IMG/VR virus record: IMGVR_UViG_2675903606_000008
Span: 1 to 8,638 of that record
DNA length: 8,638 nucleotides
Source of the DNA: a virus
Lineage: Duplodnaviria; Heunggongvirae; Uroviricota; Caudoviricetes
Reading direction: 5' to 3' (one strand)
In this document: one piece after another, positions 1,250-3,774 of the stretch
How the letters are laid out: every line of letters begins with the position of its first letter
How positions within the stretch are numbered: position 1 is the first letter of the stretch
Notes under the pieces: model-generated
Seen by the model: only the letters and a program-made list of their open reading frames with translations
What the model was told of the DNA's origin: nothing
Database searches by the model: none
Made by a program: the position numbers and the translations under genes

Positions 1250-1438
1250 TTATCCAGCCGGTGTTTCGTTATTCAGGTACAGCGATACTTTTTTTACCGG
1301 GAGGCATTCACCAGAAATTTTTTGCTCGTCTCTTGCCTGGAGGCAGGATTCTTTACTGGCATAAATTCCGGTAATCACATTCTGTGATTCACCCGTTATA
1401 AGAAAAACCGTCATCATCAGTGCAAATGCTGAAGTCAT
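1250..1438 (-). CDS. ydfD: YdfD-family small lysis protein (62 aa, N-terminal hydrophobic segment)
   Basis: Track ORF 1250..1438 minus, MTSAFALMMTVFLITGESQNV...EQKISGECLPVKKV...ETPAG. It matches my memory of E. coli YdfD in length, hydrophobic N-terminus and the EQKI.G.C.PV.KV motif. Its ATG overlaps the dicB stop in an ATGA arrangement (1435..1438). Confidence 0.75.
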   Translation of the reverse strand: MTSAFALMMTVFLITGESQNVITGIYASKESCLQARDEQKISGECLPVKKVSLYLNNETPAG

Positions 1439-1623
1439 TGACGTTCTCCGAAAATACCAAGTTCAAGAAGAGCAATTCGGGAAAGTATGGAATTATCATT
1501 GAGCAGATAAGGCTCATATTTCCTCATGTTAATGGCATCTTCAGTAAACTCCCGGTTACTGAGCAGAACACCAATATCAAAACAACCTTCAGACGTATTA
1601 ACGTTTGGTAATAACGTTTCCAT
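1435..1623 (-). CDS. dicB: DicB cell-division inhibitor (62 aa)
   Basis: Internal Met of track ORF 1435..1728 gives METLLPNVNTSEGCFDIGVLLSNREFTEDAINMRKYEPYLLNDNSILSRIALLELGIFGERQ. The N-terminal 30 residues are near-identical to DicB as I recall it (MKTLLPNVNTSEGCFEIGV...FTEDAIN.RK). A GAGGA Shine-Dalgarno lies 7 nt upstream of the ATG at 1621..1623. Confidence 0.85.
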   Translation of the reverse strand: METLLPNVNTSEGCFDIGVLLSNREFTEDAINMRKYEPYLLNDNSILSRIALLELGIFGERQ

Positions 1624-1792: not shown

Positions 1793-1835
1793 AAAAAGGG
1801 CGGCAGAGCAGCCACGGAGTAAAACTGATACCGCC
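1793..1835 (-). terminator. Intrinsic terminator-like hairpin forming the DicF 3' end (GGCGG...CCGCC stem plus U-tract)
   Basis: On the minus strand GGCGG (plus 1831..1835) can pair with CCGCC (plus 1799..1803), with additional internal pairing and a following TTTTT (plus 1793..1797). dicB downstream must be expressed by readthrough or processing. Confidence 0.5.
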
Positions 1836-1850
1836 AAACGTCACCAGAAA
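1798..1850 (-). ncRNA. dicF: DicF small regulatory RNA (53 nt; known antisense regulator of ftsZ and other mRNAs)
   Basis: The reverse complement of 1798..1850 is TTTCTGGTGACGTTTGGCGGTATCAGTTTTACTCCGTGGCTGCTCTGCCGCCC, essentially identical to the E. coli DicF sequence as I remember it, followed by a T5 tract. It lies in the expected position between the upstream genes and dicB. Confidence 0.85.
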
Positions 1851-2187
1851 ATTGATAACAGAGGGCGTTGCAGCGGGGTTGTCACTTAAGCGTATGGTCA
1901 ACCTGACAACCCGGTGTCCTCAATGGGGAAGGAATAACCCCGCCATACTTACCGCCGCGCCATTTCGCGGAGTGCCACAACCGGAAGCGCACGTTCGAAG
2001 AAATCTAACGACAAGCCTTCTAAGGGAAAGAGCTTCGCCGTACGCTTTCGCGTTATGCACTGACTTTTCAGGGAAATATCCTTTCAGTAAACTGTCAGTA
2101 CCGGATTCTTATCCGTGTCCGGCGCACGACCACACGTGACAGCGTGTTGGTCTCCATTTTTAACCCAGAACCTCAATGGAGGATAAA

Positions 2188-2397
2188 ATGCCAAACAAAA
2201 AAAGAAATCCGCTTATTGAAAAACAGATTGAATGCCTGGTAAATCAACTCAGGCAATCAGGGTTATTAAAAACTCATTCAGAGTTGAGGCTCACAGAATC
2301 AGCATTCGACGATAAATTAAATAATGTCCTTTATAATGGCATTATTGATTTTAATCGTTCTGTTGGTCGCCGCGGCCCTGCTGGTGTTTCCTTATAA
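2188..2397 (+). CDS. Hypothetical small protein (69 aa), convergent with the 216-aa gene; coding status uncertain
   Basis: Track ORF 2176..2397; the second ATG at 2188 is preceded by GGAGGA (2178..2183). The stretch is AT-rich (roughly 35% GC by hand count over about 150 nt). Product MPNKKRNPLIEKQIECLVNQLRQSGLLKTHSELRLTESAFDDKLNNVLYNG... is protein-like, with no family recognised. Its stop TAA (2395..2397) abuts the minus-strand stop at 2398..2400. Confidence 0.35.
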   Translation: MPNKKRNPLIEKQIECLVNQLRQSGLLKTHSELRLTESAFDDKLNNVLYNGIIDFNRSVGRRGPAGVSL

Positions 2398-3048
2398 TTA
2401 CCAGTCAATCCAGAGTGGACCGTGTTCAGCGTAAATATAACTGTACACATCCAGATTATATTTGTGGTCTGTTAAGAACAGGCTGCAAATACATGCCGAA
2501 GCTTCCAGTGCAGCGGCTCTGTTACTGAATAACCATGTAGCAACATTCCAGCGTTTTTCTGCATCCCAGTCTTTCTCAAGGCCTGATACCATGAAGAAAC
2601 CGTTAGTGTTGCCATCAAATAATTCTGTTTCCAAATTTTTAAGCAATGCCTGATGGACTCTTGCCAGGTATTCCGCCGGAATTTCGCCACGAATTCTGAT
2701 GAGATTGTCATAAACAAACATGTTCCCCGCATATGGCGATTTTTCTTTCTTGTTTTTTAAACCAGCATCATGAGCAAACTGATCAATTTCTTCTTCCGTT
2801 GGTTTCGTATTGATGTTTTGCGCTGTCGTTTCTGCAATTTTATTTGCCACACTCTCTGAGTCGTGTTTATTTATAGACGCACAGAAATACAATCCGGTAA
2901 ACGCATCGCGCACATTACGAGCCATATTATCAGTGTCTTTTTTCGTTACCGATTCCAATTCAAGTTCGTTCAGACGATGACGAAGTGTGTGTGCTGCAAT
3001 CTCCTGGATTGAAGGAGGTAAATCTTTAAATTCCATCGTCAACCTCAT
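2398..3048 (-). CDS. Hypothetical protein (216 aa), accessory gene in the dicB operon at the position of ydfB/ydfC
   Basis: Track ORF 2398..3048 minus. Its ATG overlaps the ydfA stop as ATGA (3046..3050), which suggests translational coupling. An alternative start is M5 (MEFKDLPPSIQ, plus-strand CAT 3034..3036). It is more AT-rich than the flanking prophage genes. I recognise no family or catalytic motif. Confidence 0.7.
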   Translation of the reverse strand: MRLTMEFKDLPPSIQEIAAHTLRHRLNELELESVTKKDTDNMARNVRDAFTGLYFCASINKHDSESVANKIAETTAQNINTKPTEEEIDQFAHDAGLKNKKEKSPYAGNMFVYDNLIRIRGEIPAEYLARVHQALLKNLETELFDGNTNGFFMVSGLEKDWDAEKRWNVATWLFSNRAAALEASACICSLFLTDHKYNLDVYSYIYAEHGPLWIDW

Positions 3049-3200
3049 CAGTCAGTGTTTCTGGCTAACCAGCGACGCGCGCCAGCTTCAGTTTTAAACG
3101 TTTTGCTTCTGGTATACGTCATCGCGGTAAACGTGCCGTCCTGATTGGGAAACACGCCACATACCAGAGATTCGTTGTTGCCAAGATCGATAGTATCCAT
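3048..3200 (-). CDS. ydfA: YdfA-family small protein (50 aa), first gene of the dicB operon
   Basis: Internal start of track ORF 3048..3278 gives MDTIDLGNNESLVCGVFPNQDGTFTAMTYTRSKTFKTEAGARRWLARNTD, which closely matches E. coli YdfA as I recall it. GAGG lies 6 nt upstream of the ATG at 3198..3200. Confidence 0.8.
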   Translation of the reverse strand: MDTIDLGNNESLVCGVFPNQDGTFTAMTYTRSKTFKTEAGARRWLARNTD

Positions 3201-3277
3201 GCTGACCTCATTTCCCCTTAACGCCGGGGTAGCGGAACTGTTTGCTGAGAACACCGTGCGGTGTCTTGATGCAAGCA

Positions 3278-3332
3278 AGATTAGCCATGACTAACAATTT
3301 GGTCAAGTATTTTTGTTTGCCATGACTAACAT
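3278..3332 (-). promoter_or_regulatory. Putative dicB-operon promoter (minus strand -35 TTGACC, 17-nt spacer, -10 TAATCT) flanked by two DicA-operator-like 20-mers
   Basis: On the minus strand: -35 TTGACC (plus 3301..3306), 17-nt spacer, -10 TAATCT (plus 3278..3283). Operator-like 20-mers at 3278..3297 (overlapping spacer and -10) and 3313..3332 resemble the palindrome in the dicA-dicC intergenic region. Confidence 0.55.
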
Positions 3333-3366
3333 TTTGGGCAACCAAAAAGATAACGCATTGATTGCG

Positions 3367-3774
3367 TTATCTTTTGTTTGTTCGTTGACGGGCTTTTAAT
3401 AACTCTTCAAAGAGTTTGTTGAAATTTTTTACTCGGGCGCGCATCTCGGTGAGCTGAGCATCCTGTTCTGATTCAGGCAATGCATTAAAAAGCTCAAGGA
3501 GCTCATGTTCTTTGGGGGATAGAGCAACTGGCTCCTCAATAGGTGGTGATGGTTGCTTGTCTTCATCGCCAAATAGAATCCATGTTGGCGAGCACTGCAG
3601 TACTTTGCTGAGGGCAAAAAGATTCTTTCCTGTAGGTTCGCTATCATCCCGCTCCCATTGTGAAACCGATACGTGAGAAATTTTCAGGACTTTAGCAAGA
3701 GACCTTTGGGTGTATTTGAGGTTTTTTCGGCGATATCTAATGCGTTCGCCAATGGTTAAATTTTTTGTATCCAT
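3367..3774 (-). CDS. dicA: DicA, CI-like HTH (XRE-family) repressor of the dicB operon (135 aa)
   Basis: Track ORF 3367..3774 minus, MDTKNLTIGERIRYRRKNLKYTQRSLAKVLKISHVSVSQWERDDSEPTGKNLFALSKVLQCSPTWILFGDEDKQ...NFNKLFEELLKARQRTNKR. This is near-identical over its full length to E. coli DicA as I recall it. It is divergently arranged with dicC. Confidence 0.9.
   Translation of the reverse strand: MDTKNLTIGERIRYRRKNLKYTQRSLAKVLKISHVSVSQWERDDSEPTGKNLFALSKVLQCSPTWILFGDEDKQPSPPIEEPVALSPKEHELLELFNALPESEQDAQLTEMRARVKNFNKLFEELLKARQRTNKR

Follow-up and report, generated by a model that had tools for sequence, protein, structure and literature searches.

The window analysed here, an 8,638-nucleotide (nt) stretch of tailed-phage DNA (Caudoviricetes; IMG/VR record IMGVR_UViG_2675903606_000008), contains a short and extremely hydrophobic open reading frame (ORF), hidden in the +1 frame at the junction of two genes that converge tail to tail, one coding for a protein of 69 amino acids (aa) and the other for a protein of 212 aa. 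The best explanation for this hidden ORF, to which we assign a probability of about 0.88, is that it is an untranslated by-product of the two genes, which are themselves real. The hidden ORF is most likely not a real functional element, and we infer that its peptide is not made in meaningful amounts. The features of the junction are the following, in window coordinates:

2321..2431, with the stop codon TAA at 2432..2434, plus strand: hidden hydrophobic ORF, 37 sense codons
2188..2397, plus strand: 69-aa gene, homologue of ECs_2212 of O157:H7 Sakai (WP_001133037.1, phrog_4274; PGAP and Sakai annotation)
2178..2183, plus strand: Shine–Dalgarno (SD) sequence GGAGGA of the 69-aa gene, 4 nt before its ATG at 2188
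2338..2391, plus strand: codons 51-68 of the 69-aa gene, all 18 ending in T or C (codon listing, resampling)
2365..2385, plus strand: GRRGPAG codons of the 69-aa gene, a frame-0 motif that reads (L)VAAALLV in the +1 frame
2398..3036, minus strand: convergent 212-aa gene, homologue of ECs_2211 (phrog_2151, 'Ybl81'), with the conserved C-terminus YIYAEHxPLWIxW

The first two thirds of the hidden ORF (2324..2397) are the +1 reading of the C-terminal tail of the 69-aa gene (..NGIIDFNRSVGRRGPAGVSL), a tail that in the Escherichia coli/Salmonella clade is written entirely in T- or C-ending codons and yields a hydrophobic, stop-free +1 frame. The last third (2398..2431) reads antisense through the conserved end of the 212-aa protein's coding sequence. 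Hidden hydrophobic ORFs are easily seen and tempting to interpret; the one described here fails every comparative test that was run, and the main value of the analysis is as a guard against the false annotation of a small protein or a type I toxin. The analysis also offers a fast route through such cases: silent and replacing changes are compared between the two frames, and distant homologues are then inspected in which other codons spell the host-frame motif.

The hidden frame and its hydropathy

A TAA at 2318..2320 immediately precedes the hidden frame, which stands +1 relative to the 69-aa ORF at 2188..2397, since (2336-2188) mod 3 = 1. Read from the ATG at 2336 (window:2336-2434), it codes for the 32 residues MALLILIVLLVAAALLVFPYNYQSIQSGPCSA before the stop codon; read from an earlier ATG, at 2324, it codes for 36 residues, beginning MSFIMALLILIV. 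Judged by its sequence, the peptide is an almost pure transmembrane-like helix. When the stop-to-stop segments of at least 25 codons in the window are ranked by hydropathy, it comes first of 201, with a 19-residue Kyte–Doolittle mean of 3.40 (2.58 for the runner-up), and with 32-36 aa and this one helix it has the size and helix content of a type I toxin (less than about 60 aa, one transmembrane-like helix). Past the end of the 69-aa ORF, over 2398..2434, the hidden frame runs opposite to the stop and the final 11-12 sense codons of the minus-strand gene (2398..3036/3048), and 2398..2431, equivalent to about 2200999..2201032 on the minus strand of the Sakai record NC_002695.2, is the only part of the hidden ORF that is not shared with frame 0. 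A preliminary description of this DNA had placed a 32-codon hydrophobic frame between the ATG at 2336 and a stop at 2432..2434, +1 to the 69-aa ORF and antisense to the end of the convergent gene, and had seen no obvious SD in front of it; our translation, frame arithmetic and coordinates agree with all of this, and GGA, GAG and AGG are absent from the 16 nt preceding either ATG (GACGATAAATTAAATA and AATGTCCTTTATA).

Third-position pyrimidines as the source of the hydrophobicity

Codons of the NTN type specify Leu, Ile, Val, Phe or Met, and those with C at the second position specify Ala, Ser, Thr or Pro, with GCN always read as Ala. The +1 frame is open and very hydrophobic because the T and C at the third codon positions of frame 0 become its second codon positions, which leaves no stop codon possible. 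The run consists of codons 51-68 (GGC ATT ATT GAT TTT AAT CGT TCT GTT GGT CGC CGC GGC CCT GCT GGT GTT TCC); unlike these codons, the four-fold sites in the N-terminal part of the 69-aa gene are mostly A-ending. The T/C-ending run at 2338..2391 is confined to the E. coli/Salmonella clade, the corresponding codons of distant homologues having mixed endings.

How often such a frame arises was gauged by synonymous resampling of the 69-aa gene, in which the +1 frame stays open in about 50% of the draws, a mean of 3.0 is reached in only 0.05-0.1% of them and one of 3.4 in 0 of 20,000 (z = 4.3). This null is anti-conservative, 5.5% of 164 control frames (taken from 82 other long ORFs) falling at p<=0.01 with a largest control z of 3.3, and the hidden ORF was chosen for being the most extreme in the window. 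About 460 kb of redundant flanking DNA contains two unrelated off-frame segments whose mean is at least 3.0. The hidden ORF is an outlier in the window, yet within reach of a genome-scale scan. Off-frame ORFs that arise from T or C at third positions are a property of the genetic code, and the 18 codons at 2338..2391 conform to it, shifting to a stop-free run of Leu, Ile, Val and Ala; what sets the present case apart is an unusually complete bias (z 4.3) together with the ATGs near the 5′ end of the ORF.

Substitutions in close relatives

Seventy-nine loci were fetched, representing 29 DNA haplotypes, and the 25 of these that are free of indels were used to count changes over 2324..2394; what was counted is distinct site-alleles rather than tree events, and in small numbers, but the direction of the result is unambiguous. 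Changes that are silent in frame 0 and replacing in the +1 frame (SN) were observed 15 times out of 56 possible single-base changes, and those that are replacing in frame 0 and silent in the +1 frame (NS) 4 times out of 54; a further 9 of 102 possible changes replace residues in both frames, and the single change that can be silent in both (1 of 1) was observed. For a 15:4 split, the one-sided binomial test gives a p of about 0.01. With the reasoning of OLGenie (PMC7531306), we obtain a dNN/dSN of about 0.33 in frame 0 and a dNN/dNS of about 1.2 in the +1 frame. The equivalent split is 22:5 upstream, at 2188..2320, a stretch with many stops in the +1 frame, and frame 0 shows no drop in its silent-site rate within the overlap (15/56; 22/71 upstream). 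Purifying selection in the +1 frame, as expected of an overlapping gene, was thus not found (dNN/dNS about 1.2; SN:NS 15:4 vs 22:5 upstream).

The same pattern is seen in individual codons. Over the GRRGPAG codons, four changes are synonymous and one is a replacement in frame 0, and all five are replacing in the +1 frame; the motif itself is invariant in nearly all of the close haplotypes, the exceptions being a group of loci (L048) with GRLGPAG and two indel-bearing loci, L075 and L078, which differ. By two independent changes that are silent in frame 0 (2361 T>A and 2382 T>A, both L>Q), a glutamine enters the core of the putative helix, and L>S, L>T and F>Q are found among the further replacements in close relatives. 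The hidden frame is open in most of the 29 haplotypes, with premature stops at codon 10 (TGA, in L050) and after codon 22 (TAG, in L060/L061). In Salmonella, the ATG at 2336 is AGG and another ATG lies one codon upstream of 2324. Where Tyr replaces Gly in the minus-strand protein, the position of the hidden stop moves four codons. The ORF and its start are therefore not kept across homologous loci, being interrupted in L050 and L060/L061 and missing from the four distant families described below. The last 11 codons of the hidden ORF (NYQSIQSGPCSA) are the reverse-complement reading of the conserved ECs_2211 C-terminus ...YIYAEHGPLWIDW, and they appear conserved because they are antisense to it. 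These comparisons show selection on frame 0 and on the minus-strand gene, and free change in the +1 peptide.

A rival possibility is that the hidden ORF is a young, clade-restricted overlapping gene. Its translation would start independently of an SD at the ATG at 2324 or 2336, in an AT-rich stretch, and would yield a low-level membrane micropeptide, toxin-like or a modulator, selected for its hydrophobic composition. Phages, lambdoid ones included, do embed genes in the +1 frame of others (Rz1 in Rz, phiX174 E in D), which counts in favour of such a gene. So do the extreme hydropathy (rank 1 of 201), a codon choice beyond what resampling predicts, a frame that Salmonella and most lineages of E. 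coli have open, ATG included, and the ribosome coverage of the host mRNA in lysogens seen in published Sakai data; if it were real, a composition-selected overlapping peptide would account for the all-pyrimidine third positions of codons 51-68. We nevertheless consider such a gene unlikely. The dN/dS of about 1.2 in the +1 frame, the helix-core glutamine in two lineages and the premature stops in two others all speak against it, and so do the lack of an SD, of a promoter and of an antisense RNA, the absence of the frame from every distant homologue family, and the fact that the peptide matches nothing in Pfam, PHROGs, PADLOC or NCBIfam and was never predicted as a protein.

Several observations nonetheless weigh against the hidden ORF being a mere by-product. 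The core stays hydrophobic, with a 19-residue mean of 2.8-3.2, throughout E. coli and Salmonella, even in lineages of only about 83% nucleotide identity; each lineage has an ATG no further than two codons from the upstream stop, that of Salmonella being a different one; and most changes in the core exchange hydrophobic or small residues (A<>V, L<>V). Moreover, the run of third-position pyrimidines exceeds the expectation from synonymous resampling (z = 4.3; nominal p of about 2e-4), and its completeness is accounted for by no more than chance or local composition. Since the substitution counts are small and carry no tree correction, these sequence features would still leave room for selection on composition rather than on sequence.

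Distant homologues, frameshifting and indels

An exhaustive search with hidden Markov models (HMMs) identified four distant families of homologues of the 69-aa protein (P0038, P0039, P0040 and P0043), of 64-78 aa and roughly 45-50% identical to it over aligned columns. The four families carry a frame-0 tail of the NRxxGRRGPAG type written in other codons: P0039, which keeps GRRGPAG, ends in ...NREYGRRGPAGVGL, P0043 ends in ...NKEHGRKPPGGVRL, and a looser version reads NRSGVRRPPLKFHF. The endings of P0039 and P0043 mark the frame-0 tail as an old, conserved protein motif. In distant homologues the codons of GRRGPAGVGL are, for example, GGT CGG AGA GGT CCA GCG GGC GTG, and the +1 frames contain stops and reach 19-residue maxima of only 0.39 and 0.41 (P0039 and P0043) and of 0.96 and 2.17 (the other two families).

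Possibly, the hydrophobic frame could be reached by a programmed +1 frameshift at CUU_U (2330..2333), which would join residues 1-48 of the small protein to IMALLILIV... in a minor, membrane-anchored isoform. The codons CTT TAT might permit a slip from CUU to UUU as in prfB, and CUU_U, the only such element, is what the junction shares with prfB. The motif is invariant in close relatives, an observation that the conserved L48-Y49 explains equally well. The window differs from prfB in that the codon in the A site (CTT TAT, 2329..2334) is UAU, which is common and is neither a stop nor a rare, hungry codon, in that no SD-like element lies 3 nt upstream, where AAATAATGTC is found without GGNGG, and in that the zero-frame product is conserved: residues beyond the site (YNGIID, NR, GRRGPAG) are retained as protein as far as the distant homologues. 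A shifted-frame product conserved in homologues, as expected of a prfB-type site, was not found, the +1 frames of the distant homologues being closed by stops and devoid of a hydrophobic segment. On this evidence frameshifting at the site is very improbable.

Another possibility is that a recent frameshift mutation, or else an indel introduced in sequencing or assembly, separated the small protein from an ancestral C-terminal membrane anchor. Tails rich in Gly, Arg and Pro, such as GRRGPAG, would be typical of Leu/Ala/Val-rich helices read out of frame. The region 2170..2460 (291 nt) is matched at >=99% in 513 complete E. coli genomes, and the sampled matches down to 99.3%, Sakai included, are all 100% identical; 31 of the 79 fetched loci are identical to the haplotype of the window; and neither Salmonella nor lineages with 12-17% divergence depart from this frame relation. 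In distant homologues, it is the tail of the GRRGPAG type that represents the conserved, ancestral frame, and a hydrophobic C-terminus is found in no homologue. A sequencing or assembly indel is excluded, and the split as a whole is extremely improbable. An ancestral arrangement of an N-terminal domain and a membrane anchor, separated by a frameshift, was likewise considered and ruled out, frame-0 residues 47-66 being conserved as protein in the distant homologues.

Expression signals and likeness to known systems

A promoter scan of 1800..3400 returned a sole promoter-like match, which overlaps the start of the 69-aa gene, and none near the hidden ORF; no terminator-like site was found near the hidden ORF, minus strand included. 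Its two ATGs are both placed in a stem by RNA folding. At gathering thresholds, Rfam detects only DicF (1798..1849), about 470 nt from the hidden ORF, and no antitoxin small RNA (sRNA). Searched against protein families, the hidden peptide gives a best E value of 0.04 in Pfam (OppC_N, below the cutoff), 0.17 in NCBIfam and 0.048 in PHROGs, and no match in PADLOC, and four variants of the peptide are absent, by exact look-up, from a collection of 15 billion proteins. A study of small genes in Sakai, which considered only intergenic ORFs, reports no novel gene at the position of the hidden ORF (PMC5597208).

The systems that the hidden ORF most resembles are the type I toxins (Ibs/Sib, Ldr/Rdl, TisB/IstR, Hok/Sok, ShoB/OhsC, ZorO/OrzO), with which it shares a length of 32-36 aa, one hydrophobic helix, a location in a prophage and an overlap with an oppositely transcribed gene. 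Unlike them, it has no dedicated promoter, no long structured 5′ untranslated region and no SD. It is not accompanied by a discrete antisense sRNA either, the complementary strand being the coding 3′ end of the 212-aa gene, and it sits within the coding region of another gene on the same strand. The peptide, moreover, has no match in Rfam, Pfam or NCBIfam, is not conserved and is not under purifying selection. A resemblance to the Ibs type (ILIVLL..FP.Y) was considered and set aside as compositional only, no family model matching the peptide. Toxicity of such a hydrophobic helix on over-expression would not in itself mean that the peptide is naturally produced. With the embedded phage genes (lambda Rz1 in Rz, phiX174 E in D, MS2 L across coat and replicase) the hidden ORF has in common a small, membrane-directed +1 product. 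Those genes have initiation signals of their own or a defined coupling, and are conserved together with their host genes; the hidden ORF, in contrast, lacks an initiation signal, and its frame is gone in every distant homologue.

The plus-strand RNA at 2290..2440 has a minimum free energy of -39.4 kcal/mol (z -2.84; 3 of 200 shuffles as good), with predicted hairpins at 2298..2367, enclosing both ATGs, and at 2368..2430, with the two abutting stop codons in the loop. Pyrimidines at third positions could be favoured by an RNA or DNA element where the two genes converge, for example the 3′-end hairpins of the opposing transcripts, and such an element would be compatible with the hidden ORF being a by-product. 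The fold, better than that of shuffled sequences, and the stop codons in the loop of the second hairpin are in keeping with such an element. Against it stand the absence of compensatory changes (10 haplotypes compared; 36 consensus pairs, 0 with such a change; covariation term -0.23), a terminator scan without any terminator-like site here, and a sequence that differs in distant homologues, and the element seems to us unlikely. As a source of the codon bias, RNA structure has the fold in its favour and the covariation result against it.

Returning to the by-product reading, of the three possibilities raised in the preliminary description it corresponds to the third, chance, which is favoured by the substitution pattern, the close relatives and the distant homologues. 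An independent membrane peptide of the type I toxin kind, its first possibility, finds no purifying selection, signals or family match to rest on, and meets stops and polar replacements in relatives; its second, a frameshift or indel, is contradicted by the matches of 99% or more in the 513 complete E. coli genomes and by a frame-0 tail that is conserved as protein. Independent assemblies, to which it had pointed for signs of an indel, cover 2170..2460 at >=99% in the same genomes with a constant frame relation, and the homologous loci, to which it had pointed for signs of conservation, have the hydrophobic frame interrupted (L050, L060/L061) or not conserved (the four distant families), an outcome that it had named as refuting.

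The 69-aa gene

The 69-aa gene is genuine, as supported by its strong SD, its PHROG match, its annotation, its homologues, its predicted helical-hairpin structure and published RNA and footprint coverage in Sakai. The GGAGGA is kept in all haplotypes and in the distant homologues, the protein matches phrog_4274 over its full length (1-69/69, E 1e-51), and the exact 69-aa sequence is found on at least 1000 contigs. AlphaFold2 models the protein as a helical hairpin (helices 8-24 and 37-59) with a mean predicted local distance difference test (pLDDT) score of 82.8 and a low-confidence tail at 60-69, so the protein is predicted to combine a helical hairpin with a conserved, probably disordered C-terminal tail. 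A fold search with this model against the PDB gave a single, uninformative match, with E = 9, and a profile search of genome contigs with the 69-aa alignment gave 83 pattern matches, of which 0 were confirmed.

In Sakai grown in LB, ECs2212 has 46.2 reads per kilobase per million (RPKM) in the transcriptome and 34.0 in the translatome, with an ORF coverage of 0.71, the footprint figures being whole-gene values that are not resolved by frame; dicB (ECs2214) is nearly silent in the same table, at 6.9 and 1.5 (PMC5597208 S2 Table). The SD of ECs2212 is placed 4 bp upstream, with a delta-G of -6.3, and a promoter is predicted 213 bp upstream (PMC5597208 S4 Table). That study lists ECs2212 merely as an annotated short gene (PMC5597208), and in the literature searched ECs2211 and ECs2212 are named in the main text of no paper.

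Two variants of the small gene were noted among the fetched loci. The run of seven A at 2198..2204 (codons 4-6) is a run of six in 8 of the 79 loci (the L058 group and L053), where the frame is shifted and the protein truncated to 17 aa (MPNKKEIRLLKNRLNAW followed by a stop), the shifted reading stopping short of the hydrophobic ORF; this variant could reflect slippage, pseudogenisation or a homopolymer assembly error. In E. coli A19 (L086, NZ_CP028756.1, 1470..1540), the gene has lost codons 1 to about 55 to an internal deletion that leaves the SD, a remnant of the tail (..GAGRLGPAGVTL and a stop) and an intact partner of 211 aa. That the partner is intact despite the deletion implies that it has no strict need for the small gene. 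A two-base difference at the junction in L086 alters which frame runs on antisense into the partner.

The convergent partner and the prophage

The stop codons of the 69-aa and 212-aa genes abut (TAA|TTA, 2395..2400). AlphaFold2 yields a poor model of the 212-aa protein (pLDDT 60.6), PADLOC reports no defence-system match for either gene, and no Pfam match was reported for the pair. The window is the early (immunity) region of a Qin/dicBF-type lambdoid prophage of the Sakai Sp11 type; over 1.5 kb it has 99.9% identity to E. coli strain 6883, and the 291 nt at its centre recur with 100% identity in prophage Sp11 of O157:H7 Sakai. Other features of the region are:

1435..1623, minus strand: dicB, cell-division inhibitor (PF05358, E 6e-37)
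1798..1849, minus strand: DicF sRNA (RF00039, 75 bits, E 1.4e-15), downstream in the minus-strand dicBF, PL-like operon
3048..3200, minus strand: ydfA-like DUF1391 gene, first of the minus-strand operon (PF07151, E 1.4e-29)
3367..3774, minus strand: CI/DicA-like repressor gene

The 69-aa gene lies on the plus strand, inside the minus-strand PL-like operon. In Qin of K-12 the interval of ECs_2212/ECs_2211 is occupied by ydfB and ydfC. Homology of about 92% to K-12 Qin and to many phages spans DicF and the upstream processing region (1798..2128) and ends at about 2128, before the 69-aa gene, which implies that the ECs_2212/ECs_2211 pair is a cassette between ydfA and dicF that replaces ydfB-ydfC.

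Tail-to-tail pairs of a gene for 64-69 aa and a convergent gene recur (window 2188..3036; L079 2501..3305; L082 2501..3569; L076 3001..3627). When the E. coli locus is compared with loci next to P2-type cox and integrase genes, the partners share 32-38% identity in their C-terminal domain (PYAGNMFVYDNLIRIRGEIP...; E 2e-16 and 5e-14); at the latter loci the 3′ ends of the pair overlap by 53 and 11 nt, and in the window the stops abut. In Salmonella the partner is reduced to its C-terminal domain, an uncalled ORF of about 126-138 aa. A homologue of the small gene from the P0040 family (69 aa) occupies the equivalent position of a Rac-like prophage (L087 2001..2210), between kilR/ydaE and the repressor and beside YdaS/YdaT, again on the strand opposite to the early-left operon and with different neighbours. 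This position and these other neighbours suggest that the small gene moves as an independent, moron-like unit. The junction has a real biology of its own, a predicted helical-hairpin protein of 64-69 aa with a conserved basic and glycine-containing tail, whose gene converges on that of a protein of about 210-290 aa, in a pairing that recurs in the early regions of lambdoid and P2-like prophages and whose small gene has transcript and ribosome coverage in an O157:H7 lysogen.

Elsewhere in the region, at 3345..3375 on the plus strand, a 13-bp perfect inverted repeat (AAAAGATAACGCA-TTGAT-TGCGTTATCTTTT) is followed by a T-rich tract and overlaps the 3′ end of the DicA-like repressor gene; it was flagged by the terminator scan and could be a bidirectional terminator or a protein-binding site.

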